From positions 1 through 37,486 of IMG/VR virus record IMGVR_UViG_3300045988_155952: a DNA stretch of 37,486 nt; one strand, written 5' to 3'. This DNA comes from a virus. Shown piece by piece: positions 1 through 13,416 of the stretch (the first letter of the stretch is position 1; every line of letters starts with the position of its first letter). Below the pieces are notes generated by a model. The model did not search any database. It was not told the DNA's origin and worked only from the letters and a program-made list of their open reading frames with translations. The translations under genes and the position numbers were made by a program.

Positions 1-119
1 AAATCAAGAAATATTAAAATAGTTACATCAAGTGTTGCAAGAAGTTTAATAGGAAATAGTATAGAATATGGTACTGTGAATGATAGCAACCATATTATTG
101 TTACTAATTACGGAAAGAT
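1..119. repeat. Terminal overlap copy A, identical to 37368..37486
   Basis: Base-by-base comparison of the first 119 nt with the last 119 nt shows no mismatch. Confidence 0.97.
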
Positions 120-657
120 TTTTCAAAATTCTACAGAGTTTAAATATATAGGTTTTGTAAGTGATTTAAATAAGTTGCCCAATTTATATGATGGAAATAA
201 AGTTACTTTATCTAGATATGGTTCTAATACTCCTGGTGCACCAAATACATCTGGAGGATGGATGCTTACATTTAAAGATAAGAAGGATAATTCAAACACA
301 TATACTGTTAATATAGCATTTTCTATTGGTAATACAGTAAATCATATTTATAAACAAACCTTTAATAACTCAATTAATTTGTGGAACACTTGGGTTCAAT
401 TGACGGGTATAACCATTGCTGGACACAATGTTAATATAAATAGACCTATTACTGAATATCCGATAGATACTGTTACGATTAATAGAATACCTAGTGGAAG
501 CTCTGAGATAACTAATAATAAAGCAGCTGTATACAAAACATATAGATTTAGCAATGATGAATATTCTTATCAAGAGATAGAGGATTTAGCTACGCATGCT
601 AAAAGATATAGAAACTGGAGTGTTAGTATAAATAACTGGGGTTCAATAATTCAGTGA
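1..657 (+). CDS. Tail fibre / receptor-binding protein, C-terminal part (same gene as 36222..37486, read across the junction)
   Basis: Frame 1 is open from nt 1 to the TGA at 655-657. Position 37368 (= nt 1) is in frame with the ATG at 36222, giving one ORF of 1,803 nt (600 aa). The GTG at 76 in the ORF track is an internal codon. Confidence 0.85.
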   Translation, partial: KSRNIKIVTSSVARSLIGNSIEYGTVNDSNHIIVTNYGKIFQNSTEFKYIGFVSDLNKLPNLYDGNKVTLSRYGSNTPGAPNTSGGWMLTFKDKKDNSNTYTVNIAFSIGNTVNHIYKQTFNNSINLWNTWVQLTGITIAGHNVNINRPITEYPIDTVTINRIPSGSSEITNNKAAVYKTYRFSNDEYSYQEIEDLATHAKRYRNWSVSINNWGSIIQ

Positions 658-671
658 AATAAATAAAGGAA

Positions 672-699
672 TTACCAAAAAAAAGTAGAATAGTATAGT
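672..699 (+). promoter_or_regulatory. Candidate sigma-A-type promoter for the RES-domain gene
   Basis: TTACCA (672-677), a 16-nt spacer, then TATAGT (694-699). It lies in the 68-nt gap after the tail-fibre stop, about 27 nt upstream of the ATG at 726. Confidence 0.45.
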
Positions 700-725
700 A
701 AATAGTTCTATGAGGTGAAGTAAAT

Positions 726-1520
726 ATGAATAAACCTGTGTTATTTGGACATTCAACATTTGTAAAAAGTGATGATTTAATATTAAATAGTATTGATCCA
801 TTAGACTTATTGAAAAGACTAGAATACTTTAGAAAAATAGATAAGAAAAATATTGATATAAATGAATTACAGAAATACATTTGTAGTACAATAGTTGCTC
901 ATTGCAATTTTTATAGAGAATATAAAAAAGGAATTAGCTTGTATAGATTAAGGGAAGTTGAATCTGAATATTATACTGAAAAGAAGGATTTAATTTATCC
1001 TCCTTCAAATAAAAGCACGTTAGGAAGATTAAATAGGAAAAATCAAAGTATGTTGTATGTATCTTTAGATTCGATAACTCCATTTTATGAGATTAAAAAT
1101 CTTAAAAGTGGTGATAAATTATGCTTAATAGAGTATGAGATAATTTCTGATGAATTTGTAGCTTCTGTAATAGGTGAAGAGGGTGAATTCCCAGAAAACT
1201 ATCTCAATCATACTGGTTTGATAAATCATAAGATTATTGAACAATTTTTATGCACAGAGATTACCAAAGAAGTAGGAAATGAATATAAATATATTTACAA
1301 TATAATAAACTTTTTAGCCGATACTTATTATAATATTCCAAAAACTATAGGGTATGAGTATCCTTCAGTGGTAAATAACAATAAGATTAATTTAGCAATT
1401 TTCCCAAAGGATGCAGATGATAAGATTAGAATAAAAGAAGTGAAAAACATAATATTCGAAGGATTTGTAGATGAAATTCCCAAATATGAGATTATATCAA
1501 CGAATAATTCTATTAGATAG
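726..1520 (+). CDS. RES-domain protein (NAD+-utilising toxin fold) with an unassigned N-terminal region of about 95 aa
   Basis: The RES hallmarks occur in order: LYRLRE, then GRLNRKNQSMLYVSLDSITPFYEI (Arg and Glu), then GYEYPSVVNNNKINLAIFP (Ser). The RBS GAGGTG sits upstream of the ATG. Confidence 0.8.
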   Translation: MNKPVLFGHSTFVKSDDLILNSIDPLDLLKRLEYFRKIDKKNIDINELQKYICSTIVAHCNFYREYKKGISLYRLREVESEYYTEKKDLIYPPSNKSTLGRLNRKNQSMLYVSLDSITPFYEIKNLKSGDKLCLIEYEIISDEFVASVIGEEGEFPENYLNHTGLINHKIIEQFLCTEITKEVGNEYKYIYNIINFLADTYYNIPKTIGYEYPSVVNNNKINLAIFPKDADDKIRIKEVKNIIFEGFVDEIPKYEIISTNNSIR

Positions 1521-1560
1521 TAATTGACCGAAAGGACGACATAATTAAATAAAAGATTTA

Positions 1561-1596
1561 AGAGAGATTTAGAGGAATTCTAAGTCTCTTTTTTAA
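1561..1596 (+). terminator. Intrinsic terminator after the RES gene
   Basis: AGAGA..TTAGA / TCTAA..TCTCT interrupted stem, followed by TTTTTT. Confidence 0.6.
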
Positions 1597-1618
1597 TGCA
1601 AAGAAAACGAGGTGTGAA

Positions 1619-1822
1619 ATGGAAAGTGAATTAATTAAAGTAATGACTAATCAAGGGGCATGGGCGTTGTTATTTTTATTTATGCTTATTTATGTGCTTA
1701 AAACTACAGGGGAAAGAGAAAAAAGATATCAAGGATTATTAGATACGTTGGCTGAAAAATTCAATGTAGTTGAAAATATCGAAGATGATGTGAAGGAAAT
1801 AAAAAATAAATTAAACAAATAA
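1619..1822 (+). CDS. bhlA: BhlA/UviB-family holin-like protein
   Basis: 67 aa with an N-terminal TM segment (GAWALLFLFMLIYVL) followed by ...EREKRYQGLLDTLAEKFNVVE, typical of the BhlA/UviB family. It lies directly upstream of the lysis genes. Confidence 0.75.
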   Translation: MESELIKVMTNQGAWALLFLFMLIYVLKTTGEREKRYQGLLDTLAEKFNVVENIEDDVKEIKNKLNK

Positions 1823-1839
1823 AAGGGAGAGTGTTTTTA

Positions 1840-2028
1840 ATGAAAGAAAGAATTGTAAAAAAGCTAACAAGTGCTAGATTTTTAATGGCTATAATATTCA
1901 CATTAGTTATAAGCTACATGGCTATAACTGGAACTATAAGTGGGGAGCAGTTCGTGCCATTAGCAACAATGGTAGTTGCTTTCTATTTTAGCAGAGATAA
2001 AGAACAAAATCTTAATCAAGAGGGGTAA
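1840..2028 (+). CDS. Small two-TM holin
   Basis: The ATG at 1840 lies 9 nt after the RBS AAGGGAGA; the GTG at 1831 in the ORF track has no spacing to that RBS. 62 aa with two hydrophobic segments and a charged C-terminus, immediately upstream of the endolysin. Confidence 0.7.
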   Translation: MKERIVKKLTSARFLMAIIFTLVISYMAITGTISGEQFVPLATMVVAFYFSRDKEQNLNQEG

Positions 2029-2038
2029 TATCCCCTCT
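2019..2038 (+). promoter_or_regulatory. GC-rich stem-loop AGAGGGG-N6-CCCCTCT overlapping the holin stop
   Basis: Perfect 7-bp stem followed by ATTCTATTTT. The same stem sequence recurs at 18833..18852. Confidence 0.5.
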
Positions 2039-2061
2039 ATTCTATTTTAAGGAGGGATTTT

Positions 2062-2955
2062 ATGTTTGGAATAGATATAAGTAATCATAATAGTTCTATA
2101 GATTTCAATAAAGTTAAAGCTGATGGAGTGGATACTATAATAATGAAAGCCACAGAGGGCGGAAGTTATTTAGACCCAATGCTAGAAGAAAATTATAAAC
2201 AAGCTTTAGATAAGGGATTTAATATTGGATTTTATCATTTCCTTTACGAGTTATCAGATGCAAAAAGACAAGCTAACTGGTTTTGGCAGAATATTAAGGA
2301 TAAAGAATTTAATGTGATTCCAGTTTTAGATGCAGAAAGAAATAACAATAATAAGTTTAATAGGGAAACTTATACTAAGTTTTGTTTAGACTTCCTAGAA
2401 GAATTTAAAAGGTTAAGTGGTATAGAATGTATTCTTTATACTTACACCAGTTTTGCTAATAGCTTAATGGATAGCAGATTAAAGTCTTATAAGCTATGGG
2501 AAGCTAATTACTATACCAATAATGGTCAAAGACATAATAGAAAAGGATTGACTAATATATGGGGCAAGGACATTGTAGGCCACCAGTATACTTCTACAGG
2601 ACGAGTTAATGGTATTGTAACGAATTGCGATCTAAACGACTTTGAGGAAAGTATTCTATTAAACAAGGGGGAAAAGCCACAAGAAAGCAAACCAGTAAAT
2701 AAGGAGGAATCAAAATTGTTAGAACAATGTAAAAGGCAAGTATTAAACTACGGAAATAAAGGAACATATGTATACTTGGCACAAAGTGCTATGAAAGCAT
2801 TAGGATTATATAATGGAGTTGTAGACGGTTCATATGGTCCTTCTAAGGGAAACGGAAGCTTTTATCAAACAGTCGTAAATTTAAATTCTAAGTTAGGATA
2901 TAAAAACGATTCTAGATTAGGACCAGCTTGCTGGACTTATATACTAACCAAGTAG
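2062..2955 (+). CDS. Endolysin: GH25 muramidase with a C-terminal peptidoglycan-binding (PG_binding_1-like) domain
   Basis: The N-terminus FGIDISNHNSSIDFNKVKADGVDTIIMKATEG...FYHF is typical of Glyco_hydro_25. The C-terminus GNKGTYVYLAQSAMKALGLYNGVVDGSYGP resembles PG_binding_1. Confidence 0.9.
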   Translation: MFGIDISNHNSSIDFNKVKADGVDTIIMKATEGGSYLDPMLEENYKQALDKGFNIGFYHFLYELSDAKRQANWFWQNIKDKEFNVIPVLDAERNNNNKFNRETYTKFCLDFLEEFKRLSGIECILYTYTSFANSLMDSRLKSYKLWEANYYTNNGQRHNRKGLTNIWGKDIVGHQYTSTGRVNGIVTNCDLNDFEESILLNKGEKPQESKPVNKEESKLLEQCKRQVLNYGNKGTYVYLAQSAMKALGLYNGVVDGSYGPSKGNGSFYQTVVNLNSKLGYKNDSRLGPACWTYILTK

Positions 2956-2991
2956 TATAATGTATTAGAAAATTTAATTATCTATTTTATC

Positions 2992-3036
2992 AAAGCCAGT
3001 GGGTAGGGAAATTCCTTGCTTACTGGCTTTTTTTAT
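2992..3036 (+). terminator. Intrinsic terminator ending the lysis operon
   Basis: AAAGCCAGT (2992-3000) pairs with ACTGGCTTT (3022-3030), followed by a T-run. Confidence 0.8.
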
Positions 3037-3095
3037 TTTAAAGCTTTATTTATATTCCAAATAGTGGTAAAATATTACTATAAGGTGGTGATGGT

Positions 3096-3293
3096 TTGGT
3101 TAAGAATAAACTTAAAGAAATAAGAATGAAAGAATACATGATGTCTCAAAAGGATTTTGCAACTTTTTTAGATGTTCAAGTTAAAGTTTATTGGAGTTGG
3201 GAAAACAATAAAAGCAAACCAACACTAGAAAAGGCACTTGAGATTGCTAATAAATTAAATAAAAATATTATGGATATATGGTACTTACAATAG
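3096..3293 (+). CDS. XRE-family HTH transcriptional regulator (65 aa)
   Basis: TTG start after AAGGTGGTG. The sequence LKEIRMKEYMMSQKDFATFLDVQVKVYWSWENNKSKP fits the HTH_3 pattern. Confidence 0.75.
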   Translation: MVKNKLKEIRMKEYMMSQKDFATFLDVQVKVYWSWENNKSKPTLEKALEIANKLNKNIMDIWYLQ

Positions 3294-3433
3294 TGAGTAC
3301 TTTTTTTATGCAATTAAAACCATGTCTAATAGAAAAAATCTAAAATAAAACAAATAAAATCTAATATTTTAGGAAACTTTTTATCCTTTAGTACATACAT
3401 ATAAACTATAAAGCAAGACAAAAGAGGTTAAAG

Positions 3434-3601
3434 TTGATTGTTGACTTAATTGAATTGCAAGAAGTAGAGATTAACAAGGTGGTTAATTACATTAAAGAAG
3501 TAGGTAAAAGTAGAATCTATGCAGATACGATTGAATACATTGTATTTTTAAAAGACGGAGGTATGTACTCTATATTCTTAGAGCAGCCTAAACTATATTG
3601 A
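3434..3601 (+). CDS. Hypothetical 55-aa protein, translationally coupled to the FtsK-like gene
   Basis: TTG start 5 nt after the RBS AAAGAGGT. Its TGA stop (3599-3601) overlaps the TTG start at 3598 of the next ORF. It is below the ORF-track length cut-off. Confidence 0.45.
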   Translation: MIVDLIELQEVEINKVVNYIKEVGKSRIYADTIEYIVFLKDGGMYSIFLEQPKLY

Positions 3602-4554
3602 TTTTATATATTAAGTTATTAGCAATGTTCCTATCTGCGTATGGCTCTATTAATTTACTTCTTCCAGAAGAATTTAAAGATAAGCATAAGATAAAAAGTA
3701 AGTTTAGATATTTTATAAAAGAAAAAGACTTAATTACAAAAGTTACAGATAAAGTTACTTTGGAAGATATAGAGATTTATAAATGGGGATTTAAAGCTAT
3801 ATTAGATATAAGTAAGATATGTGCATATGAGGACATTGAAAAACATTCAGATTATCTTAAACAGATGTTTAGGGCTAAAGAAGTAAACATGATAAATAAG
3901 AATGGAACTGCTGAAATTGAAGTATTCAACAAAGATATAGGTGATATTAAATACGAATATGTAGATATGTCGCCCTATGAACTTATATTTGGCTATAACA
4001 AAAAAGGTGAACCAATAACAGTAAATATGAAGAAAACTCCACATATAGGGGTGCAAGGTGCATCTAATAGTGGTAAAAGTAAAATGGTTGAACTAGCCTT
4101 AAGAAACTTAAAGAATAAGGCAGACGTTATTATGCTTAATTGTTTTGAAGATGATTTTATAAGCATACCGGGAAGAAGGATAAACAATAATGAGGATATA
4201 TTAGAATACTTAGAAAGTATTATAGAAGAACCATATATAAGAGAAAGACCACTATATCTATTGTTAGATGAGTTAAATGTACTTGGTAAAGATAAAAAGA
4301 TTAATAAGGCTATTATGGATGTTTTAGCACAAGCTAGACACTTCAATATCTTTCTTATTGCACTTGGCCAAAGTTTATTGAAAGAAAATTGTCCATATAA
4401 ACAGTTATTTAACGTTAGAGTTACATTCAGAGCTATAGATAGAAGCAGTATAAGTGCCTTTTTAGGATGTACTGTAGAAGATACAAGGCTAAATCAAAGG
4501 GAGTTTATTTGTTATTCAGATAGCATTTATAGGGGGAAGTCTTACTTACTATAA
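3598..4554 (+). CDS. FtsK/SpoIIIE/TcpA-family DNA-translocase-like ATPase with an N-terminal TM segment
   Basis: N-terminal hydrophobic helix; Walker A GASNSGKS; Walker B LYLLLDELNVL; AQARHFNIFLIALGQS resembles the FtsK RAxGIHLIxATQ motif. Confidence 0.75.
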   Translation: MILYIKLLAMFLSAYGSINLLLPEEFKDKHKIKSKFRYFIKEKDLITKVTDKVTLEDIEIYKWGFKAILDISKICAYEDIEKHSDYLKQMFRAKEVNMINKNGTAEIEVFNKDIGDIKYEYVDMSPYELIFGYNKKGEPITVNMKKTPHIGVQGASNSGKSKMVELALRNLKNKADVIMLNCFEDDFISIPGRRINNNEDILEYLESIIEEPYIRERPLYLLLDELNVLGKDKKINKAIMDVLAQARHFNIFLIALGQSLLKENCPYKQLFNVRVTFRAIDRSSISAFLGCTVEDTRLNQREFICYSDSIYRGKSYLL

Positions 4555-4559
4555 GTATT

Positions 4560-4715
4560 ATGTTAAGCGAATTGGTCGAAGCTTTCGTGTAGCAAGTGGA
4601 ATGCGTAGTCTTGGAATACAACTTGTTGTTTACAAGCGAAGCATGGAGCGAAGTGGAACGAAAGCTGAGAGCAATCAGGCGAAGCCTAAACTTGATAGTA
4701 GTGGGGTAATTCAAA
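4560..4715. repeat. GC-enriched intergenic region with about 6 copies of a (A/G)GCGAAG-like iteron and small hairpins; candidate oriT/dso
   Basis: Iteron copies: aagcgaa (4565), gtcgaagc (4575), aagcgaagc (4634), gagcgaagt (4646), aacgaaagc (4657), ggcgaagcc (4678). Hairpins: CGAA-gct-TTCG and CTTGT-tgttt-ACAAG. There is no ORF, and the composition clearly departs from the AT-rich flanks. Confidence 0.5.
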
Positions 4716-4718
4716 TCA

Positions 4719-5519
4719 ATGAAAAAAATCGAAAATCTATATAACTTAAAAATAATTACTAGTGGTGATAGATTGGAAATCTACAAGATGAATAATTATT
4801 TAGCAAGAACGGATTTTGAGCGCGAAATCGAAAAATCACAAGATACCAAAGATGATGAAAAAGGTATTCAATCCTTAAAAGATAGAAAAGCTACATTAAA
4901 TAAGGCTAGAAATAACATTATGAGATTAATAAAGTCAAATCCAGATATGACCACCTTTATTACTTTAACATTTAGTAATGTTCCAGACTATAAAAAAAGC
5001 AAACAGTTGTTAAATATATTTTTTACTAAGCTTAGGAGGGATTATACAAATTTAAAGTATATTTGGGTACTTGAATTAGGAGAGAAGAATAAAAGGTTAC
5101 ATTATCATCTATTGACTAATGTTTTAGTTCCTATAAATTTAAGTGGAAACAATGAAACAAAATCATTTGAACATAAGATTTATGAAGAACAATTTAGAAA
5201 ATCTTATTGGGAACATGGCTTTGTAGATATTAGAGATTTAGAACAGGAAGATAATACTAATATAGCTTTATATGTAAGTGCTTATATAGTAAAAAGCTTA
5301 TTAGATATAAACATTGACGGCAGAGTATATGGATATAGTCATAAAACAATAGATCGTCCAGTTGAAACCAAGCTTTATTCAAATTGCAGCATAGAAGAGT
5401 TATTAAATCATTTCAAAGAGTATAAGATTGATTATACAAATAGTTATAAAATTGGCTTTACAGATTGGCAAGGCGAACGAAAAGGGACAGTAACCTATTT
5501 CGATATGAGTAAAAAATAA
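4719..5519 (+). CDS. HUH rolling-circle replication initiator / relaxase-like protein
   Basis: Motif 1 is TFITLTF, motif 2 (HUH) is LHYHLLTN, and motif 3 is ALYVSAYIVKS (catalytic Tyr). The motif order is that of phiX174 gpA / Microviridae VP4-like Reps. Confidence 0.8.
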   Translation: MKKIENLYNLKIITSGDRLEIYKMNNYLARTDFEREIEKSQDTKDDEKGIQSLKDRKATLNKARNNIMRLIKSNPDMTTFITLTFSNVPDYKKSKQLLNIFFTKLRRDYTNLKYIWVLELGEKNKRLHYHLLTNVLVPINLSGNNETKSFEHKIYEEQFRKSYWEHGFVDIRDLEQEDNTNIALYVSAYIVKSLLDINIDGRVYGYSHKTIDRPVETKLYSNCSIEELLNHFKEYKIDYTNSYKIGFTDWQGERKGTVTYFDMSKK

Positions 5520-5540
5520 TTATATAAGGAGAGTTAAATT

Positions 5541-5834
5541 ATGAAAATAAATAATGTAATGTGTTTAGTTAGTTCTAGAGAGGAAAAAATAAATAAGAAT
5601 ACTAATTTGCCTTATTGGACAACAAGTATAGTCACTTTAGATGGTGATGGTACTGCTTTAAATATTACAGTAAAAGAGAGGGAATTGGCAGAAAAGTTAA
5701 AACCTATGTTTAAATACAACCTTAATTTAAGCTTATCAAACAGTCAATATGGTATGAGAGTTGAGTTAGCAGCATTAAATCCAATAGTTAAAGAATTAGG
5801 GTCTATAATAGACGGAATACCACAAGGAAAATAA
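5541..5834 (+). CDS. Hypothetical 97-aa protein (beta-rich; possible OB-fold accessory factor)
   Basis: Good RBS (AAGGAGAG), and the gene follows Rep closely. No diagnostic motif, so the function is speculative. Confidence 0.6.
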   Translation: MKINNVMCLVSSREEKINKNTNLPYWTTSIVTLDGDGTALNITVKERELAEKLKPMFKYNLNLSLSNSQYGMRVELAALNPIVKELGSIIDGIPQGK

Positions 5835-5894
5835 TTGACAATTTATGTCTGTATTATACAATATAATATATAGATAATAAAGGGAGATGATAGA

Positions 5895-6095
5895 ATGGGA
5901 GAAGTTCAACAAGGAATACAAGCATTTTTAGGGGTAGGCGCATTTGTAGCTCTAATATCAATAGTTTCATTTATTGTATTTATGGTTTGTACAATTTGTA
6001 ATGCAATAAACATACGTAAGATAGCTGTTAATGTAGAAAAAATAGCAAATAGAAAAAGAAAAAAAGAAGAGTTACCACAGCCACAAAAAGACTAG
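5895..6095 (+). CDS. Small single-pass membrane protein with a basic C-terminal tail
   Basis: RBS AAGGGAGATG. The TM segment is GVGAFVALISIVSFIVFMVCTIC, followed by ...NRKRKKEELPQPQKD. Confidence 0.6.
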   Translation: MGEVQQGIQAFLGVGAFVALISIVSFIVFMVCTICNAINIRKIAVNVEKIANRKRKKEELPQPQKD

Positions 6096-6117
6096 GATAA
6101 ATAAATCCTAGTCTTTT
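6086..6117. terminator. Bidirectional intrinsic terminator between convergent genes
   Basis: AAAAGACTAGGAT (6086-6098), loop aaataa, then ATCCTAGTCTTTT (6105-6117): a perfect 13-bp stem whose outer A:T pairs supply the A-run and T-run. Confidence 0.85.
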
Positions 6118-6392
6118 CTTATATACTTATAATATCCATTTATGCAGTGATTAATATATGGTTCTAAATCCTTGTTTATGGCATAATTGGTTTTGATTTG
6201 CGATCTACCTACTAGATAATCTATAGTAACGTTATAATAATCAGCAAGTGCAATAAGCACCTCAACATCTGGATTGCGTTCTCCTGTTTCCCAATACGAG
6301 TATGCTTGCCTACTAACATTTAATAATTTTGCTATATCTTCTTGTCGTAGACCTTTCTCCGTTCGTAATATTTTAAAATTGTTCTTATTCAT
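6108..6392 (-). CDS. XRE-family HTH transcriptional regulator (94 aa)
   Basis: ILRTEKGLRQEDIAKLLNVSRQAYSYWETGERNPDVEVLIALADYYNVTIDYLVG is a classic HTH_3 pattern. The ATG at 6392 is preferred because the GAGGTG RBS overlaps the upstream GTG at 6401. Confidence 0.8.
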   Translation of the reverse strand: MNKNNFKILRTEKGLRQEDIAKLLNVSRQAYSYWETGERNPDVEVLIALADYYNVTIDYLVGRSQIKTNYAINKDLEPYINHCINGYYKYIRKD

Positions 6393-6509
6393 TAAAAACA
6401 CCTCAAGAATATTTTACCAAACAGAGAAATTTTGTCTGCCATTGCAACAAAAAGTGGAATTTTATTAAATAATATTAGGTATAAATAACATTAAGTGGCT
6501 AAGAACACG

Positions 6510-6538
6510 TTGTAATGAGTACATATGTTTGATATAAT
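6510..6538 (+). promoter_or_regulatory. Near-consensus sigma-A promoter (TTGTAA-17-TATAAT)
   Basis: TTGTAA at 6510-6515, an exact 17-nt spacer, then TATAAT at 6533-6538. It points toward the micro-ORF at 6574. Confidence 0.65.
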
Positions 6539-6573
6539 ATTTTAAAAGGTATAGTTGTAAGGGGTGTCTAGAC

Positions 6574-6672
6574 TTGAAGAATTTTAAAGCAAAATTTATT
6601 GAACTTACAAAAAATCTAACAAAAGATGATTTAAAAACTATAATACATAATCTACAAAAAGCACTCAAATGA
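6574..6672 (+). CDS. Candidate 32-aa micro-protein (LKNFKAKFIELTKNLTKDDLKTIIHNLQKALK)
   Basis: TTG start 5-6 nt after the RBS AAGGGGTG. It sits downstream of the consensus promoter and ends in a hairpin plus T-run. The peptide is amphipathic with no signal peptide. Whether it is coding is unproven. Confidence 0.35.
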   Translation: MKNFKAKFIELTKNLTKDDLKTIIHNLQKALK

Positions 6673-6683
6673 GAGTGTTTTTT
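6656..6683. terminator. Short bidirectional terminator shared by the micro-ORF transcript and the integrase gene
   Basis: AAAAA, GCACTC, loop aaatga, GAGTGT, TTTTT. The stem is 6 bp including one G:T pair. Confidence 0.45.
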
Positions 6684-6731
6684 AATATCATTAATGAATT
6701 GCATGGGTGTCCTTTGAATACATAACCGATA

Positions 6732-8219
6732 CTATGTAAATTCTATGTCAATACTATCGTCAAATGGGTTGTAAATCAGTTTGTTAAATATAATTCTCAC
6801 CTTATTCCTTTTTTCTTTATTATCTTTTATATTTCTAAATTCTCTTATAGCTTGTTGCAATTCTGAATCATTTTTCTTGGTAATTGCATCAAGTTGATTT
6901 ATTCTTAATTCATCAATTTTGGCTTCTAGTTCAATATTTTCAGAAGTTAATTCTTCTATTTTTCTTGTCAGTGGTTCAGCTGCTGCATTACTTAATAGCA
7001 TTAATTTTTCCACCAAATTATCAATAGCTTTCTTATTATCATCTATAGACTTTAACAGTATATCTATTTCGTTTTGCTTGTTATCTACTACCATATTACC
7101 TTTATATTTTTTAAACTCTCTATCGTCCTCTAAATTATTAATAAGTATACTTACTTTTTCTTCTATCGTTTCTGCATTAACGTATTTATTATTTTCACAC
7201 TTAACCTTGTCTTTATTTATTCCCATTTCATTACTTGCCCTATTTATCCTACTAGAGCAAACATAATAAGTGTTTTTACCGCTATTTACCAAAACGTACT
7301 TAGAGCCACAGAAAGGGCAATATAGTATTTCTGTAAGCCAATAAGTTTTGCTTTCTCTCTTAGTGGCTTTATCTTTATTCTTATCTAACAGTAAATTAAC
7401 TTTTAAAAACAATTCAGCATCTATCGGTGCGTTGTGTTTGCTTACTATTAGAGTTGGATAGTCAGAAGTTTTGCCATAAGTCATATAGCCCTTTTTATTA
7501 GCTTTTCCAACAACCTCAAAACCTTTATTAAGTAAATAATCCGAAACTCTTTCATCAGACTTACAGTAAACGGGATTTCTTAATATCTTCCCTAAGCTAC
7601 TTCTAGTCGTTAAAGTCTTAATGCCATTATCTAAAAGATATTTTTGTGTAGCATATAGAGAACCTAGTTCCAAATATTTATCAAACATTAATTTTATTAT
7701 TTTATCATCTTCAATTTTTAAAAAGCTTTTACCTTCTTTCTTTTCTATAGTGCAACCAAAAGGAACAAAACCACCAGTAAAACAACCTTTTTTAGCTAAA
7801 CTTATCATATTATCTTTTACTCTTTGTCTTATGTTTTCTCGTTCCATATCAGCAAATGCAGATAACATTATCATCATCATTTTGCCGCCTGGAGTGCTAG
7901 GATCAAATCCTTCGCTTATAGATATTAACTTTACATTGTACTTTTCTAATTCTTCATAAATCTTAAAAAAATCTACTATATTCCTCGATATTCTATCAAC
8001 CTTATAAATAGCCACTATATCAAATTTACCTAACTTAATCAAAGACATTAATCTTTTAAAACTAGGTCGATTGGTATTTCCTCCGCTAAATCCTTCATCT
8101 TCAAATATTTCAAACTCGTTTTCGCCTTGAAAGTATTTTTTACATAATTGTATCTGCGTTTCTATACTCTCACTATTTTCTACCGCAACAGATTTTCTGG
8201 TATATATCGCAATTCTCAT
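6732..8219 (-). CDS. int: Large serine recombinase (phage integrase)
   Basis: The N-terminus MRIAIYTRKSV...(Ser nucleophile) has the resolvase catalytic fold and is followed by a recombinase domain. There is also a Cys cluster (CPFCGSKY...YYVCSS) and a C-terminal coiled-coil. 495 aa. Confidence 0.92.
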   Translation of the reverse strand: MRIAIYTRKSVAVENSESIETQIQLCKKYFQGENEFEIFEDEGFSGGNTNRPSFKRLMSLIKLGKFDIVAIYKVDRISRNIVDFFKIYEELEKYNVKLISISEGFDPSTPGGKMMMIMLSAFADMERENIRQRVKDNMISLAKKGCFTGGFVPFGCTIEKKEGKSFLKIEDDKIIKLMFDKYLELGSLYATQKYLLDNGIKTLTTRSSLGKILRNPVYCKSDERVSDYLLNKGFEVVGKANKKGYMTYGKTSDYPTLIVSKHNAPIDAELFLKVNLLLDKNKDKATKRESKTYWLTEILYCPFCGSKYVLVNSGKNTYYVCSSRINRASNEMGINKDKVKCENNKYVNAETIEEKVSILINNLEDDREFKKYKGNMVVDNKQNEIDILLKSIDDNKKAIDNLVEKLMLLSNAAAEPLTRKIEELTSENIELEAKIDELRINQLDAITKKNDSELQQAIREFRNIKDNKEKRNKVRIIFNKLIYNPFDDSIDIEFT

Positions 8220-8220
8220 A

Positions 8221-8583
8221 TTATCTCCCCTTTTTTAAATTAGCAATTTCCTTTTTTACCATATCCATTATCATTTTTTCAGTTTTTTCATCAATATTCT
8301 TTTCATCTTTGATTATTCCATTTTCAATTAAAAATTCAAGAAAATTAGAAACTAAAGCTTCCTTTTCTTTTCCTAAACCAGTCTTTTCAGTTGTTAAACC
8401 TTCTAAATAATCTAAAGATACATTAAAATATTCAGCTACTTTTTTAGCAAATTCCCTTCCTCCGTCTTGTTTTCCAGCTTCAACCATTCCTATTAAACTT
8501 CTTGCAACTCCTAGCTTTTCACTTAATTGTTTCTGCGTAAGCCCTTTATCTTTTCTTAATTCTTTTAAAATTTCAGATTTCAT
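8221..8583 (-). CDS. cI-like XRE-family repressor, co-oriented and contiguous with int
   Basis: LKELRKDKGLTQKQLSEKLGVARSLIGMVEAGKQ is an HTH. The gene is divergent from the Cro-like gene across an operator-bearing region, and its stop lies 1 nt from the int start. Confidence 0.8.
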   Translation of the reverse strand: MKSEILKELRKDKGLTQKQLSEKLGVARSLIGMVEAGKQDGGREFAKKVAEYFNVSLDYLEGLTTEKTGLGKEKEALVSNFLEFLIENGIIKDEKNIDEKTEKMIMDMVKKEIANLKKGR

Positions 8584-8634
8584 TTTTATTTCTCCTTTTA
8601 AATTAGTAACTTATATATTGGATTATGCCCTAAA

Positions 8635-8652
8635 AGTCATGAAATATAACCA
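8635..8652. promoter_or_regulatory. Operator-like half site (AGTCATGAAATAT...)
   Basis: Shares the AGTCAT arm with the two palindromic sites at 8766 and 8822. It lies near the repressor gene's 5' region. Confidence 0.4.
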
Positions 8653-8765
8653 CATTCATTAAAATATCATAAAAAATGATAATTAAAAAGAGAACATATG
8701 TACTAAAATGTAGAAAAATAAATGAAATAAGAGATATTTTTAGAAAGTTCACTTTAAATTACCAA

Positions 8766-8783
8766 AGTCATGATATATGACAT
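8766..8783. promoter_or_regulatory. Palindromic operator AGTCATgatatATGACAT
   Basis: GTCAT/ATGAC inverted arms. It is one of three related sites in the 285-nt divergent region. Confidence 0.6.
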
Positions 8784-8813
8784 TTATTGAAGTTATATCC
8801 TTAAAAATGGAGT

Positions 8814-8842
8814 TTTACATAAGTCATATTATGTGACATAAT
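8814..8842 (+). promoter_or_regulatory. Candidate early rightward promoter (TTTACA-17-CATAAT)
   Basis: TTTACA at 8814-8819, a 17-nt spacer containing an operator, then CATAAT at 8837-8842. It lies about 27 nt upstream of the Cro-like start. Confidence 0.55.
8822..8839. promoter_or_regulatory. Palindromic operator AGTCATattatGTGACAT inside the early rightward promoter spacer
   Basis: GTCA/TGAC inverted arms. The site lies in the spacer of the candidate promoter at 8814..8842. Confidence 0.6.
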
Positions 8843-8868
8843 AACAACTGTAGAAAGGAGGTGCAAGC

Positions 8869-9111
8869 GTGTTAAAGGACTTAAGACAAAATGTAGGTTT
8901 AACAACTGATTTTGTTTCTAAAAAATTAGGAATTCCTAAAAGCACACTTTATAAATATGAACAAAATCAACTGTTGCCTTCCATGAATATTTTATTAAAA
9001 ATGAAAGACATTTACAAGTGCGATTATGAAGAATTGGTAAATGCTTATAGAATGGCGAAAGGAGTTTACGATGAAAGAAAAGCTAAAAAAAGAAGTAAGT
9101 CAGCTAACTAA
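8869..9111 (+). CDS. Cro-like XRE-family HTH regulator
   Basis: GTG start 5 nt after AGGAGGTG. LRQNVGLTTDFVSKKLGIPKSTLYKYEQNQ is an HTH. It is the first gene of the rightward early operon. Confidence 0.8.
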   Translation: MLKDLRQNVGLTTDFVSKKLGIPKSTLYKYEQNQLLPSMNILLKMKDIYKCDYEELVNAYRMAKGVYDERKAKKRSKSAN

Positions 9112-9226
9112 AGAAGAGACAGAAGAATTATTAAGTAGAGTTAAAGGGATTTTTGAAGGTGGAGTTACTTTTATAAATCCAGAAAACTATAAAAGTGCTA
9201 TGGCAAATTATTATAAAAGTTTATAG
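9071..9226 (+). CDS. Hypothetical 51-aa early protein
   Basis: The ATG at 9071 lies 7 nt after AAAGGAG. It overlaps the 3' end of the Cro-like gene. The 9041 start in the ORF track lacks an RBS. Confidence 0.5.
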   Translation: MKEKLKKEVSQLTKEETEELLSRVKGIFEGGVTFINPENYKSAMANYYKSL

Positions 9227-9261
9227 GACAAGCCTTAGATTAAAAAATAGGAGGAATATAA

Positions 9262-9951
9262 ATGAAAGAATTAATAAAAATTAATACAAATGAAGAAGGT
9301 AAACAATTAGTAAGTGCAAGAGAGCTTTACTTAGGATTAGGGCTTAATAAATCGCAATGGTCGAGATGGTATCCGACAAATATTATAAAGAATGATTTCT
9401 TTACAAAAAATGTTGATTGGATAGGGGTTCGACATGATGTCGAAGGTAATGAGGTACAGGACTTTGCTATATCTCTTGAATTTGCAAAACATATAGCAAT
9501 GATGGCAAGAACAGAAAAATCGCACGAGTATAGAAATTACTTTATTGAGTGTGAAAGAAAAGTTAATCAACTTCCTCAATTATCCAAAGAACTACAAGCA
9601 ATATTTGCACTAGATGGAAAGCAACAAAAATTAGAATCAGAAGTTAAAGAATTAAAGGATAATATGCCATTATTTCAAGTTGACTGTAAAGAACTACAAG
9701 CCATTGTAAGGAAGAAAGGTATAGAAGTCTTAGGAGGGAAGGACAAGCCTTCATACAAAGATAATAGCATAAGGGGAAAGGTTTATTCAGATATTCAACA
9801 CCAGCTTAAGAGAGAGTTCGGAGTTACTAGATATGAAGCTATAAAAAGAAGTCAATTAGGTATAGCTACAGAAATAGTTGACAATTACAAAGTACCAACT
9901 GTATTAGCAGAGGAAATAGAACAACTTAACAACCAACTTCAATTTAATTAG
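9262..9951 (+). CDS. Phage antirepressor (AntA/ORF6N-like N-terminus, ORF6C-like C-terminus)
   Basis: VSARELYLGLGLNKSQWSRWYPTNI...DFAISLEFAKHIAMMARTEKSHEYRNYFIECE is typical of the Ant / KilAC-associated N-terminal domain. The gene sits right after cro. Confidence 0.75.
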   Translation: MKELIKINTNEEGKQLVSARELYLGLGLNKSQWSRWYPTNIIKNDFFTKNVDWIGVRHDVEGNEVQDFAISLEFAKHIAMMARTEKSHEYRNYFIECERKVNQLPQLSKELQAIFALDGKQQKLESEVKELKDNMPLFQVDCKELQAIVRKKGIEVLGGKDKPSYKDNSIRGKVYSDIQHQLKREFGVTRYEAIKRSQLGIATEIVDNYKVPTVLAEEIEQLNNQLQFN

Positions 9952-9961
9952 GAGGTGCAAT

Positions 9962-10144
9962 ATGGAGGAAGTGGAACAAATTCTACAAGATTTTACTAAA
10001 GCTTTAGAGACTACAGTTTTTGCGGTAGAAATTAATGGAATAAAAAGAGAAGCAACACTAGAAGATCAAGTTGACTTTATCAAAAATGCTTGGGAAGAAG
10101 CAAGTGAACAACTATATGAGTTAGGAGTTGAAACTAACTATTAG
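9962..10144 (+). CDS. Hypothetical acidic 60-aa protein
   Basis: RBS AGGAGGTG with compact spacing to the neighbouring genes. Confidence 0.6.
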   Translation: MEEVEQILQDFTKALETTVFAVEINGIKREATLEDQVDFIKNAWEEASEQLYELGVETNY

Positions 10145-10154
10145 AGGTGATTTT

Positions 10155-10298
10155 ATGAGAGATTTAGCATTTAAGCATAAAGTATTTCTAGAGAATTTAG
10201 GAATTGACTATAACAACTATTTATTTGTCGGCAAGGGTGCTGATTACTATAGATTTATGGACAAGCACTCTAAGCGAGTATTTGACATAAGAAGATAA
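10155..10298 (+). CDS. Hypothetical 47-aa protein
   Basis: The ATG lies 6 nt after AGAGGTGA. It is below the ORF-track cut-off, and the competing minus-strand ORF 10221..10502 looks spurious. Confidence 0.45.
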   Translation: MRDLAFKHKVFLENLGIDYNNYLFVGKGADYYRFMDKHSKRVFDIRR

Positions 10299-10338
10299 AT
10301 GTAAATGAATATTAAAGAATTGGAAAGGGGAATAAAAA

Positions 10339-10515
10339 ATGTTAACAAGTAATGCAAGTATATTATTAAAAGCTTTTTCAAGCGTGTTTTTAGTAGCAGT
10401 ATTCTTAATGGGATTTTTCTCATGGGGGTATAGCAAAAACAAGGTAGACAAGCTTAGAAGTGGCTTCTTTACAGTAGGAAGCTTAATAAGTTTTCTATAC
10501 ACAATAAATATTTAA
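10339..10515 (+). CDS. Hypothetical 58-aa membrane protein
   Basis: The ATG follows GGAAAGGGGAA. There are two hydrophobic stretches (AFSSVFLVAVFLMGFF and TVGSLISFLY). The stop is followed by the next gene's RBS. Confidence 0.5.
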   Translation: MLTSNASILLKAFSSVFLVAVFLMGFFSWGYSKNKVDKLRSGFFTVGSLISFLYTINI

Positions 10516-10528
10516 GGAGGTGAAATAA

Positions 10529-10870
10529 ATGACAGAGGAATTAGCAAGAGATAGCCAGGGTAGATATGCTTATAACCCAGAGTATTTCGGCAAAACTAGA
10601 ACACCTTATTCGCAAGACGACCATGATTATCTTGTTAAATGGTATGACAAAATACCACTTGAAGAAATGGCATTTGCACTAGAAAGAACACCAACAAGCA
10701 TAGAAGCAAGAATGAGGTACTTGAAGAAAAATGGATTGTTATACACTTATAAAGCACCAGCACCAAAGCCACTAAGATACAAAGATATTAAATCTCAAAT
10801 AGATACAGTAGTGGCAAAGTATTTCAATGGCATACCACTAAATGTGATCTTAGAAAAAAATAAAGGCTAA
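10529..10870 (+). CDS. Hypothetical protein (113 aa)
   Basis: RBS AAGGAGGTG. No motif recognised. Confidence 0.65.
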   Translation: MTEELARDSQGRYAYNPEYFGKTRTPYSQDDHDYLVKWYDKIPLEEMAFALERTPTSIEARMRYLKKNGLLYTYKAPAPKPLRYKDIKSQIDTVVAKYFNGIPLNVILEKNKG

Positions 10871-10963
10871 TGCTTAAGCACCACCAAAAGCAAATAGCCA
10901 AAACCAAATAATCAATATTAATTATACCAAATAAAATGAATGAATATCAAGGAGGATTTAGAT

Positions 10964-11545
10964 ATGAGTAAATTTAAAGTTGGCGATAAGGTAACAGGCG
11001 TGAATCTAAACCAATGCATGTATGGTAAAAAGGCAAGGGTTATAAAGATAGTAAACTTTTGTGGAATGACAGGTTATATTTTAGATGAATTTCCTACGAT
11101 TAAATGGTGGGAAGACGAATTAAAGCTAATAGAACCAGCAACAACAGAGTTCACCTTCGAGGAAGTAATAGCAAGGATTAAAGAAGGGGAAGTTTATCGA
11201 GGTACTGGAGGTTCAACTGTTGATGAAATAACTAAGAAAAATACAGAAATACTAATATCTATTAGTATTTCTCAAACAGGTATCGTTCCGACAATGCAAA
11301 AATACAAACTAGTTCCACAAAAGAAAGAATACAAACTTTATAAAGTAGAACACAAAGAGGACGGAAAGAGATACTTATTCAGAAGCGATTTAGACCATAC
11401 CTTAGATGATATGGTGGTGTGCGATACTTGCCAAGGTAAGTCTTATGGAAAGATGGTTAAGGTAGTTACTAAAGAACTTACAGAAGAAGAATATAAAGCT
11501 TATAAGCCTATAGTAAGGATAATTTCTAAAGGTTGTCCGTTCTAG
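10964..11545 (+). CDS. Hypothetical protein (193 aa)
   Basis: The ATG at 10964 follows CAAGGAGG. The 10940 start in the ORF track lies upstream of that RBS. Confidence 0.65.
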   Translation: MSKFKVGDKVTGVNLNQCMYGKKARVIKIVNFCGMTGYILDEFPTIKWWEDELKLIEPATTEFTFEEVIARIKEGEVYRGTGGSTVDEITKKNTEILISISISQTGIVPTMQKYKLVPQKKEYKLYKVEHKEDGKRYLFRSDLDHTLDDMVVCDTCQGKSYGKMVKVVTKELTEEEYKAYKPIVRIISKGCPF

Positions 11546-11555
11546 GAGATGCGAT

Positions 11556-11801
11556 ATGGACGAAAGATTGATAGAAATATTCAAATTAGTGTTTTTGCTT
11601 AATCAAAAAAAACACAGTGATTTAAAGATGCACTTAACAGACTTCAGTATAGATATTGTGAATGAAACTTGCGAATCAATAATACCTCATTGGACAAAAC
11701 ATATTTACCTTGATGAGTTTTGGAAAAATTATTATGACGATATGGTAAATGGCACTTTAGAAATGCTTAAAGAAATGTTAGGAGGTGCTAAGAATGAGTA
11801 A
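11556..11801 (+). CDS. Hypothetical protein (81 aa)
   Basis: RBS AGGAGATG. Part of the compact operon. Confidence 0.6.
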   Translation: MDERLIEIFKLVFLLNQKKHSDLKMHLTDFSIDIVNETCESIIPHWTKHIYLDEFWKNYYDDMVNGTLEMLKEMLGGAKNE

Positions 11802-11976
11802 CTTACCGGATTGCAGTTATGACTATAGGCACGAAAACCCACTAGCTGAAAAAATATATACTTGTTCAAGTTGCGGTGGGGGAATTTATACAGGTGATGC
11901 TTACTGGAATATATCGGGGCAGATAATCTGCGAGGAATGTATAGAGCATCTAAAAAATGAAGCAGAGGAGGGGTAA
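11794..11976 (+). CDS. Small zinc-ribbon protein (CxxC...CxxC)
   Basis: The ATG at 11794 follows AGGAGGTG. The Cys pairs are CSSCGG and CEEC. Confidence 0.6.
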   Translation: MSNLPDCSYDYRHENPLAEKIYTCSSCGGGIYTGDAYWNISGQIICEECIEHLKNEAEEG

Positions 11977-12117
11977 TAATGTACGAAAATTGTAAATTGT
12001 AAAATATAAAAACTGTACTAGCTTGTTATGGCGACAAGATGACAGACAAAGAACTTACTCAAATAGCAATTAGGGTAAATGCAGCTAAAGAGAGAATTGA
12101 TAGGGAGGAAAGAGATA

Positions 12118-12609
12118 ATGGCTAAACTTTATGAGATAGCAGATGGATATAGAAATATTCAAGCATTGTTAGATAATCCAGAGATCCCAATGGAAATAGT
12201 AGTTGATGGATTAACCAAGCTAGATGATGATTTTGAGGAAAAAGCTGAAAACATAGCAAAGGTATTAAGGGAAATGGAGGGGGATATAACCTCTCTTAAG
12301 GACGAAGAAGTAAGAATATCAAGCAGAAGAAAAGCATTAGAAAATAGAAAACAAGGATTAAAGCTTTATTTAGAAAGCTATATGAGGGCGATAAGCAAGA
12401 CTTCGTTCAAGGGTAAGCTATTTACCTTCTCTATCAGTAAGAACAAGCCTAGCGTTGAAATAAGCAACCTAGAGGGTATTCCTAGTGAATATATAGAAGT
12501 TGAAGAAGTTAAAAAAGTAGATAAACGAAAATTGCTTGAAGCCTTACAAAACGGAGAAGAAATTCAAGGGGCAACTATTAAACAAAATGAAAGTTTAAGA
12601 ATTAGATAG
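12118..12609 (+). CDS. Siphovirus Gp157-family protein
   Basis: The ATG at 12118 follows AGGGAGGAA. The family pattern is LYEIADGY...FEEKAENIAKVLREMEGDITSLKDEEVRISSRRKALENR...SLRIR. It is paired with a downstream annealase, as is usual. Confidence 0.75.
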   Translation: MAKLYEIADGYRNIQALLDNPEIPMEIVVDGLTKLDDDFEEKAENIAKVLREMEGDITSLKDEEVRISSRRKALENRKQGLKLYLESYMRAISKTSFKGKLFTFSISKNKPSVEISNLEGIPSEYIEVEEVKKVDKRKLLEALQNGEEIQGATIKQNESLRIR

Positions 12610-12619
12610 GAGGGAAGGC

Positions 12620-13156: not shown

Positions 13157-13201
13157 GGTTACACAGATTTTAAGTATAGAAGATTTGTAGGAGGATTTTA
13201 A

Positions 13202-13405
13202 GTGGTAAATGTAAAGAAATTAGAAATGTGGAATATGAGTTTATCAATGCTAGTAGGAAAATCTCCAAAGATAAAATTTCTTTGTGGCAAGTGCGGTTCA
13301 TACAATGCAACTAGAATTTCACTAGATGCTGTTAAAAATAGAGCCCCATATGTAGTTTGTAAAAATTGTGGGGAAATAAATGATACAGGAATAACACTAG
13401 GTTAG
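13202..13405 (+). CDS. Small zinc-ribbon protein
   Basis: GTG start 6 nt after GGAGGA. The Cys pairs are CGKCGS and CKNCGE. Confidence 0.55.
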   Translation: MVNVKKLEMWNMSLSMLVGKSPKIKFLCGKCGSYNATRISLDAVKNRAPYVVCKNCGEINDTGITLG

Positions 13406-13416
13406 AAGGTGATAAT

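Follow-up and report, generated by a model that had tools for sequence, protein, structure and literature searches.

The 37,486-nt window analysed here, which is the whole stretch of the IMG/VR virus record IMGVR_UViG_3300045988_155952 (positions 1 to 37,486), carries on its plus strand a cassette of about 2.8 kb (approximately 3039-5837). The cassette encodes an XRE-type regulator, a 55-residue protein, a membrane-anchored FtsK/TcpA-fold ATPase, a two-tyrosine HUH rolling-circle initiator (Rep) and a small protein with a predicted oligonucleotide/oligosaccharide-binding (OB) fold, and a conserved phiX174-like origin motif is located between the ATPase and Rep genes. Our analysis identifies this cassette as a self-contained, horizontally exchanged cargo for the processing of single-stranded DNA (ssDNA), which occupies the slot between the lysis genes and the phage attachment site, attP, of a temperate Clostridium phage. 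With regard to its function we are more guarded: tentatively, and with confidence just short of even, we favour a DNA-processing and mobilization module of the kind carried by ICEs (integrative and conjugative elements) as well as by IMEs (integrative mobilizable elements), which would act through the mating pore of a helper element. The protein superfamilies involved are already known, and so is the module type from ICEs and IMEs; what differs is the complete tailed phage as carrier of a discrete plug-in, the base-exact phiX174-like pair of origin and initiator, and the orphan OB-fold partner.

Extent and exchange of the cassette

The cassette is a presence/absence unit. The sibling phage L032 (IMG/VR 3300045988_131636), which shares 88-93% identity with the window across the tail, holin and endolysin genes, is collinear with the window up to position 3038, just past the endolysin terminator, then skips the cassette and resumes at a TTGACA promoter corresponding to window position 5835, directly after the TAA stop codon of the 97-residue open reading frame (ORF). 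The limits of approximately 3039-5837 are set by these junction alignments, in which positions 8986/8993 of L032 are equivalent to 8980/11787 of L034. The original prediction had proposed that this block is accessory cargo, and its precise absence from L032 bears this out; likewise, the six ORFs that had been called in the region are present and their motifs are real. The block had also been described as bracketed by terminators. A terminator scan located the endolysin terminator at 2992-3030 (+), which forms the left edge of the insertion slot, and an additional one after the XRE gene at 3280-3301 (+), but none at the right end of the cassette, so that the bracketing holds on the left side only. 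As neither direct, inverted or terminal repeats nor target duplications were detected at the cassette junctions, transposition is a less likely route of exchange than homologous or modular recombination. In other relatives, the slot between the lysis genes and attP is filled with unrelated genes.

The window was further compared with phage L004. For the cassette core, consisting of the genes for the ATPase, Rep and the OB-fold protein, the synonymous divergence (dS) amounts to 0.07-0.32 and the ratio of nonsynonymous to synonymous divergence (dN/dS) to 0.02-0.10 (ATPase 0.065, Rep 0.098, OB-fold gene 0.02), while dS is 1.16 for the adjacent endolysin gene. The low dS relative to the flanking phage genes points to recent exchange and the low dN/dS to retained function, with all three genes under strong purifying selection; the core of the cassette is thus constrained as well as recently exchanged.

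The initiator and its origin

The Rep protein (266 residues; 4719-5519, +) is a two-tyrosine HUH rolling-circle initiator of the phiX174 gpA/microvirus VP4/PF23343 type, as had been suggested from its motifs. It matches PF23343 (REP_ORF2-G2P) with 61.3 bits (cutoff 27.8; E 1.1e-16), which is its only Pfam match, and no match to PF02486 (MobT, Rep_trans) was obtained in the Pfam scan. Among the matches listed, PF23343 was identified in 120 of 120 Rep homologues; the family comprises 284 clusters (90%-identity clusters, E <= 1e-5). The residues F80, T82, L83, T84 and F85 (FITLTF), H128 and H130 (HYH), and Y185, Y189 and K192 are invariant in an alignment of 31 sequences and align to FDTLTL, HFH and YVAKYVNK of phiX174 gpA. 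Both proteins thus share the FxTLT, HUH and YxxxYxxK motifs, whereas the cassette Rep is much shorter (266 versus 513 residues), with an identity of about 22% over the catalytic core. In contrast to the settings of phiX174, Microviridae VP4 and P2 gpA, the cassette has no capsid genes, is accessory cargo of a double-stranded DNA (dsDNA) phage and provides a membrane ATPase as partner of the initiator.

The spacer between the ATPase and Rep genes (4555-4718) is 164 nt in length, as originally described. Most of it falls within the 150 nt that precede the nick motif (4539-4688); these have a GC content of 0.43 compared with 0.29 in the flanks and are structured (z -2.6 to -4.1). The GC-rich character of the spacer is therefore real; its description as iteron-bearing could not be upheld, since the AGCGAA-type 8-10-mers are weak and not kept between loci. 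The conserved element is instead the origin motif AACTTGATAGTAGTGGGGTAATTCA at 4689-4713 (+). Its consensus, AACTTG(A/T)TAGTAG-N5-TAATTCA, is located 20-100 nt upstream of the Rep gene and on the Rep strand. The 13-nt core of the motif (4689-4701) has no second match in the window with up to two mismatches allowed; it occurs once per module locus, in both of the gene orders described below, and is missing from module-free loci. The exceptions are L022 and L024, which carry one-base variants, and L027, a locus cut at the contig end, in which no exact match was found. A search of IMG/VR with the origin motif returned the three known sibling contigs and one chance match in an unrelated 86-kb phage, and the plasmids that encode distant Rep relatives (pHT926, pGTG5 and a 1.6-kb C. 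cadaveris plasmid) do not contain a CTTG(A/T)TA motif.

The first nine bases of the motif, AACTTGATA, are identical to positions 4300-4308 of phiX174, which surround the annotated origin at 4306 (caacttg/atattaataac, the slash marking the nick). In phiX174, this nick is located before A4306, the annotated start of viral-strand synthesis, so that the identity covers the core of the origin at the mapped nick. Based on the identical start of the motif and the gpA-like active site, Rep is predicted to nick the plus strand of the window between G4694 and A4695.

Upstream of the motif, folding of the spacer yielded a long imperfect hairpin at 4571-4675 (+; arms 4571-4588 and 4658-4675), which is a candidate for a single-strand origin (sso) or a Rep-binding structure. 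Similar long imperfect hairpins occur in most loci in which the ATPase gene precedes the Rep gene (z -2 to -9). The fold of the plus strand is more stable than that of the minus strand at 18 of 20 loci. The ssoA signature CS-6 (TAGCG[AT]; PMC6395029) is present on the plus strand of 5 out of 20 spacers and on the minus strand of none of the 20, and the position of an sso relative to rep is flexible (PMC5703833). Given the limited occurrence of CS-6, a role of the hairpin as sso is plausible, not established. A scan of 2900-8900 against Rfam gave nothing credible in the spacer. The apex of the hairpin (4620-4627) displays a nick-like AACTTGTT, about 70 nt upstream of the origin motif. It is found in six lineages (the window, L004, L005, L017, L049 and, as a variant, L009) and is not universal; it could be a binding or termination site of Rep on ssDNA. 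As a side observation, three Logan contigs, assembled independently from three runs (L068, L070 and L071), each start, within positions 1-16, 2-3 nt before a AACTTGATAGTAG motif. This suggests that the assembly graph branches at the conserved origin of approximately 31 nt, and that the origin is a mosaic junction which different elements within one sample have in common.

The ATPase and the OB-fold protein

The ATPase (318 residues; 3598-4554, +) was recognized as a membrane-anchored FtsK/TcpA-fold P-loop ATPase from its motifs, from profile comparison and from an AlphaFold2 (AF2) model, so that its original placement among the FtsK/SpoIIIE-type ATPases is retained. It possesses a Walker A motif (GASNSGKS), a Walker B motif (LLLDE) and ARHFNIFLIALGQS, and in a 30-sequence alignment the residues G154, S156, G159, K160, D224, E225, R247 and H248 are invariant and Q258 is nearly so. 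A profile built from 30 homologues matched FtsK (1.3e-9), EssC/EccC and the pCW3 coupling protein TcpA (4.5e-4) in the PDB. The protein itself matched PHROG 1358 ('FtsK/SpoIIIE-like', 3.8e-11) and, below threshold, Pfam AAA_14, and several of its homologues, which fall into 68 clusters, carry PF01580. The best fold matches of the model (pLDDT 89) in Foldseek are pCW3 TcpA (8.6e-16) and the FtsK motor (1.6e-15), which are effectively tied at TM-scores of 0.58-0.70. Both sequence and model indicate a single N-terminal hydrophobic helix (residues 2-21); pCW3 TcpA has two N-terminal membrane helices. The model stops at the RecA-like domain and is devoid of a gamma/winged helix-turn-helix (wHTH) DNA-recognition domain. 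We propose that this protein serves as a coupling or translocation ATPase. Distant ATPases with an FtsK/SpoIIIE domain (397-419 residues, 23-25% identity) were also noticed at L035 (2695-3954) and on the C. tetani plasmid NZ_AP026820.1 (38534-39727; L058). They reside in the cargo region of other clostridial phages or of a 45.6-kb phage-plasmid, next to a wHTH protein, and a PF23343-type Rep is not evident at these two loci.

The 97-residue protein encoded downstream of Rep (5541-5834, +), originally described as beta-rich, can now be specified further, as its AF2 model (pLDDT 88.9) adopts an OB fold. Its top matches in the PDB and BFVD are mostly ssDNA-binding proteins, including Rim1, PriB, bacterial SSBs, RPA, PrgE of pCF10 and baculovirus LEF-3. 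By sequence the family is small and orphan. An exhaustive profile search among 1.84 billion representatives retrieved 37 clusters, all of 44-100 residues except for one 662-residue repeat protein (E 4.5e-4), and 45 clusters were found in the distribution survey. No supporting Pfam match was obtained in 35 members and no match in a PDB profile search, and a sequence kinship to HelP, g5p or SSB was dismissed, as profile, Pfam and PDB searches provided no link. Judging from the model, we propose that the protein may bind ssDNA or act as a helper of the relaxosome or helicase.

Distribution among phages, islands and plasmids

The gene set [XRE]-[small ORF]-ATPase-spacer-Rep-OB was identified in more than 20 distinct loci of Clostridium and Sarcina. 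In most cases, among them C. perfringens and Clostridium sp. LP20, it directly follows the holin and endolysin genes at the attR-proximal end of a prophage. The carrier phages vary, with tyrosine rather than serine integrases or with other endolysin types. The module also resides on C. perfringens plasmids of about 10-16 kb, the complete ones of which possess partition genes of the ParA/ribbon-helix-helix (RHH) type; alongside the ParA/RHH pair, no initiator was identified on the module-bearing plasmids. In C. tertium (L049-L051, approximately 1-13500) it forms the end of a small integrated element with helix-turn-helix (HTH)/excisionase-like genes, DnaB, a weak capsid-like match and a sigma-70-like factor, after which comes an ImmA-type peptidase; the element has more in common with a phage satellite than with a full prophage. 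The order of the window, ATPase-origin-Rep, is the layout in most loci. A second order, in which Rep and the OB-fold gene are followed by that of a larger FtsK-like ATPase, was observed in C. nigeriense, in Caproiciproducens and on a 16.4-kb Clostridium plasmid (loci L015, L016 and L020). The occurrence on Clostridium plasmids and islands shows that the block exists outside phages, whereas the original prediction had named a lack of independent occurrence as refuting it; on the other hand, the block recurs at the same position, from the lysis genes to attR, in many prophages, which in part agrees with a second finding that the same prediction had listed as speaking against it.

At L005, a tail gene and a sigma factor are present alongside the module. 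On the C. perfringens plasmid L045 (CP198548.1, 35,159 bp) the gene set repeats every 15.75 kb (ParA at 801 and 16551), as if a plasmid of about 15.8 kb were present as a dimer or had been duplicated in the assembly. The idea that the module also exists as an independent mini-replicon was abandoned, as module contigs of 4.7-6 kb turned out to be phage fragments, with an endolysin or integrase gene adjacent, and not circles.

A possible role in mobilization

The order of a coupling-type ATPase, an origin and a rolling-circle replication (RCR)-type initiator had been compared with that of Tn916 and ICEBs1, and the cassette does match the layouts documented for these elements and for streptococcal IMEs (Coluzzi et al. 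2017, PMC5357655; Guedon et al. 2017, PMC5704250). In Tn916, ICEBs1 and ICESt3, the coupling protein gene is followed by the origin and an RCR-type relaxase, and the relaxases of ICEBs1 and Tn916 also serve as replication initiators (PMC5704250); small OB-fold proteins are essential relaxosome partners in the modules of all three elements (PMC12614216). In the streptococcal IMEs, a TcpA coupling protein is encoded upstream of a relaxase of the RCR-initiator type, including the microvirus-type Rel_PHA00330 (PMC5357655, PMC5704250). Both in these IMEs and in the cassette, an FtsK-like ATPase gene directly precedes a phage- or plasmid-type RCR initiator, the module is shuffled among elements with various integrases, and an own type IV secretion system (T4SS) is lacking. 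In contrast to the IMEs, the carrier of the cassette is a complete tailed temperate phage (or a plasmid), the host is Clostridium, and OB-fold and XRE genes are part of the unit. The likeness to the IMEs is one of described layout, and IME function has itself been deduced. The same functional cast, namely an OB-fold protein (OrfL/OrfM or HelP), a TcpA-type coupling protein, oriT and a MobT relaxase that also drives rolling-circle replication, is found in ICESt3, Tn916 and ICEBs1 (PMC12614216, PMC3542172). However, their relaxases are of the Rep_trans/MobT type while the cassette Rep is a two-tyrosine protein of the PF23343/phiX type, the OB-fold gene of the cassette is located downstream of Rep and bears no sequence relation to HelP/DUF961, and mating-pore genes are absent from the cassette. 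For the OB-fold protein, the relation to HelP, OrfL and OrfM is one of analogy, not membership. The actinomycete elements pSAM2 and pIJ101 similarly combine an RCR Rep, an FtsK-like Tra protein and a repressor in an integrative element (see also PMC5704250). In mycelial hosts, however, their Tra/TraB proteins transport dsDNA by themselves, and they have a DNA-recognition domain, while the cassette ATPase is without that domain and its hosts are unicellular Firmicutes.

We favour mobilization because at least the phages and the C. tertium island that carry the cassette possess other replication genes (a replisome organizer, DnaB and SSB in the window phage, DnaB in the island) and because it moves between phages, islands and plasmids, as is typical of mobilization modules; as originally argued, Rep is redundant to the theta-type replication module of the phage. 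Accepting this function for the cassette, the following sequence of events might be envisaged. After circularization of the prophage, Rep would cut the plus strand at AACTTG/ATAG (4694/4695) and stay on the 5' end through one of its tyrosines. A host helicase of the PcrA type would unwind the DNA, and the OB-fold protein might help in this step or coat the displaced strand. The complex of Rep and ssDNA would then be passed to the membrane-anchored, presumably hexameric FtsK/TcpA-like ATPase, which would act as coupling protein, the mating pore being that of a conjugative element resident in the cell. In this way the whole phage genome of about 37 kb would be mobilised like an IME; the second tyrosine would close the strand, and the hairpin upstream of the origin would prime complementary-strand synthesis. 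The same nicking would also yield plasmid-like rolling-circle copies of the excised genome, and such copying would be a built-in by-product of mobilization. Silencing of the cassette is probably the task of the XRE protein.

A number of observations weigh against mobilization. No T4SS gene is present in the window, and conjugative transfer of the phage or cassette would follow from analogy with the elements named above. The characterised or annotated relatives of Rep (microvirus VP4, phiX gpA, proteins of 1.5-1.8 kb plasmids) are replication initiators; for none of its family members has relaxase activity been demonstrated, and the assignment to IMEs in the literature was itself deduced; its designation as a Rep-relaxase is a proposal. 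With respect to the ATPase, the match to Pfam FtsK_SpoIIIE is sub-threshold (19.8 bits, cutoff 24), the profile is nearer to FtsK than to TcpA, and the closest relative with an annotated role resides in the Clostridium inovirus CAK1. The fold matches of the OB-fold protein are weak (E 1e-3 to 1e-2, TM-score 0.5-0.65), and it has no sequence link to HelP, OrfL or OrfM. Finally, MOB-suite types the module-bearing plasmids as non-mobilizable, a result that merely reflects the absence of known relaxases.

It might further be speculated, albeit with considerable reserve, that the window represents a dual-route phage, which leaves the cell either in virions or as Rep-piloted ssDNA through the pore of a co-resident element, with the phiX174-type initiator and origin functioning as relaxase and oriT and with its own TcpA-like ATPase, and that the cassette confers mobilizability on Clostridium phages, satellite-like islands and plasmids alike. 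In that case, a nick made in the integrated state, at about 1.1 kb from the right edge of the cassette and directed towards attR, could even lead to Hfr-like transfer of flanking host DNA. If the cassette functions in the manner proposed, phage and conjugation would no longer be distinct pathways by which genes move in Clostridium, the genus to which C. perfringens belongs; prophages could reach cells that have no receptor for them, or spread while sparing the donor, and a plug-in of 2.8 kb could render mobilizable whichever phage, island or plasmid acquires it. The cassette would also be the first experimentally tractable case of the proposed 'RCR-initiator-type relaxases' of the microvirus/phiX family, with a nick predicted to the base. 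In practice, the carrier plasmids are at present scored as non-mobilizable by MOB-suite, and NCBI annotates the ATPase as hypothetical. In the limited literature that was searched on prophages with relaxase and coupling-protein modules, we did not find this arrangement described.

Alternative explanations

The most serious alternative, although in our view a rather unlikely one, is that the cassette constitutes an RCR replicon or maintenance module. In this case Rep, a double-strand origin (dso) and the hairpin as sso would enable the excised phage, plasmid or island to replicate as a circle in the manner of a plasmid, and the ATPase, instead of docking to a mating pore, would segregate or pump this DNA, in these spore-formers for instance through the septum of division or of the forespore. 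Such a role would agree with the distant relatives of Rep (27-30% identity), which are annotated as Rep genes of the 1.5-1.8 kb plasmids pHT926 and pGTG5 with two annotated genes each, with the presence of the module on small ParA-bearing plasmids, with the proximity of the ATPase to FtsK by sequence and with the dual role of the ICEBs1 and Tn916 relaxases mentioned above. The order sso-dso-rep is common in RCR plasmids, and the structured region, with its more stable plus-strand fold, fits this order by its place just upstream of the nick site and rep, although CS-6 was restricted to a quarter of the spacers. It is less readily reconciled with the fact that the phages and the C. tertium island have other replication systems, so that a second replicon is not obviously needed, or with an ATPase model lacking a gamma/wHTH DNA-recognition domain, and it does not account for Rep being strictly paired with a membrane ATPase. 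Were it correct, the phiX174-type pair of initiator and origin would be a portable replicon inside dsDNA phages of Firmicutes.

Improbable, but still to be considered, is an origin from an inovirus-like or other ssDNA phage nested in the tailed phage, in which Rep would produce ssDNA, the OB-fold protein would take the role of the gene V protein and the ATPase would export the DNA without a conjugative pore, the coat proteins possibly coming from elsewhere. This notion derives mainly from CAK1 (OX639564.1): CAK1_11 is the only match of the ATPase in the phage database (38.5-41% identity; 41% over the ATPase domain), the order of FtsK-like gene, intergenic region and Rep is identical, and the host genus is the same. 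In addition, PF23343 spans plectrovirus ORF2 and inovirus G2P, some Rep matches are annotated as inoviruses, the XRE protein is weakly similar to RstR, and a small OB-fold protein of about 85-97 residues is part of the cassette. CAK1_11, however, lacks the N-terminal 120 residues including the transmembrane helix, and it is distinct from the Zot-like g1p, CAK1_10, a separate gene without counterpart in the cassette. The cassette is also devoid of coat, pIII/pVI and Zot-type pI genes, with no Zot match in the Pfam scan, while CAK1 has both Zot-type g1p and coat genes. In a gene-by-gene BLAST, neither Rep, SSB nor coat proteins of CAK1 showed similarity, and g5p is not among the top fold matches of the OB-fold protein. 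Moreover, the five-gene unit is conserved, and purifying selection acts on it, in more than 20 loci that lack virion genes. Since the BLAST comparison to CAK1 yielded a match for the FtsK-like gene, a weak one for the XRE gene and no others, an inovirus remnant was rejected as the principal explanation.

A function in defence or exclusion, with the ATPase and a nuclease acting as a lysogenic-conversion pair against incoming phage or plasmid DNA, is highly improbable. The slot between lysis genes and attP is a classic site for morons and accommodates other cargo in related phages, the ATPase matches the PADLOC model mad8 (1.8e-12), and the cassette has its own XRE regulator; however, the other components of MADS (mad1-mad8) are missing, the remaining five proteins have no PADLOC match, and the conservation of a cis origin motif beside Rep indicates that Rep acts on its own element rather than on invaders. 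Least probable of all is a core replication or packaging accessory of this phage lineage, for which the recurrence after the lysis genes of many Clostridium prophages, a weak match of the ATPase to a PHROG 'terminase large subunit' family (9.8e-8) and the replication of P2-type tailed phages via a phiX-type A protein might be put forward, since a sibling with 88-93% identical flanks lacks the cassette, related phages have unrelated genes in the same slot, the phage owns a terminase and a replication module, and the cassette also occurs on non-phage plasmids.

Small cassette genes and the neighbouring cargo

The first gene of the cassette encodes the 65-residue regulator of the XRE/HTH_3 family (3096-3293, +; HTH_3 1.3e-9). 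While the other cassette genes are 95-99% identical to those of L004, the XRE protein is only 50-52% identical to the L004 allele (8368-8574), with a dS of 1.7. Such a difference has the appearance of an allele swap of the immunity type. The promoter-like regions that flank the XRE gene are conserved, and a co-variation of the XRE allele with operators upstream or downstream was not evident. The 55-residue ORF (3434-3601, +) overlaps the start of the ATPase gene and is translationally coupled to it; it has no family match in the Pfam and PHROG scans, and its dN/dS between the window and L004 is 0.36. A comparison of the small ORFs at L010, L045, L049, L024, L025, L014, L017 and L005 revealed at least three unrelated kinds at the position ahead of the ATPase gene: ORFs similar to that of the window, ORFs with the start 'RITVNFR...' and an RHH-like appearance, and a small transmembrane protein. 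An RHH identity of these small proteins was rejected, as it had no Pfam support.

The original prediction had extended the block to position 6119 and had included a 66-residue transmembrane protein. The L032 junction and the promoter of that gene instead place the right boundary at about 5837. The gene (ORF 5895-6095) has its own near-consensus promoter at 5835-5862 (TTGACA-16-TACAAT, 11/12 match), and lies in a second cargo slot, in which other cassette-bearing siblings have a DUF5643-like gene for 141-148 residues in its place. Because of this separate promoter and its replacement in siblings, it is separate cargo outside the cassette. Its product has a single transmembrane segment and a highly basic C-terminus and might be a moron with an exclusion or toxin-like function.

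The carrier phage

The ends of the window, 1-119 and 37368-37486, are identical over 119 bp. The assembly is therefore circularly closed, and the window represents a complete phage genome, about 37.37 kb in size. PHROG scans identified a replisome organizer, a DnaB helicase, an SSB, a methyltransferase, the large terminase, portal, major head, tape measure and tail proteins, and the endolysin. A serine integrase (Resolvase, Recombinase and Zn_ribbon_recom domains) is encoded on the minus strand directly 3' of a cI-like repressor gene and is, as stated before, the only recombinase in the window. Structural and replication genes, the integrase and repressor, a GC content of about 30% and relatives that all belong to Clostridium or Sarcina together show that the window is a temperate siphovirus-like Clostridium phage. 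Among GenBank phages, no match at the DNA level was obtained to the block or to 25 kb of the window. The serine integrase gene is separated from an XRE gene on the minus strand (6108-6401) by a stretch of 330 nt (6402-6731), which contains several promoter-like sites and, as its sole ORF, a dubious one of 79 residues. This stretch is likely the attP region; the equivalent XRE gene of L055, an integrated relative, is followed by host genes.

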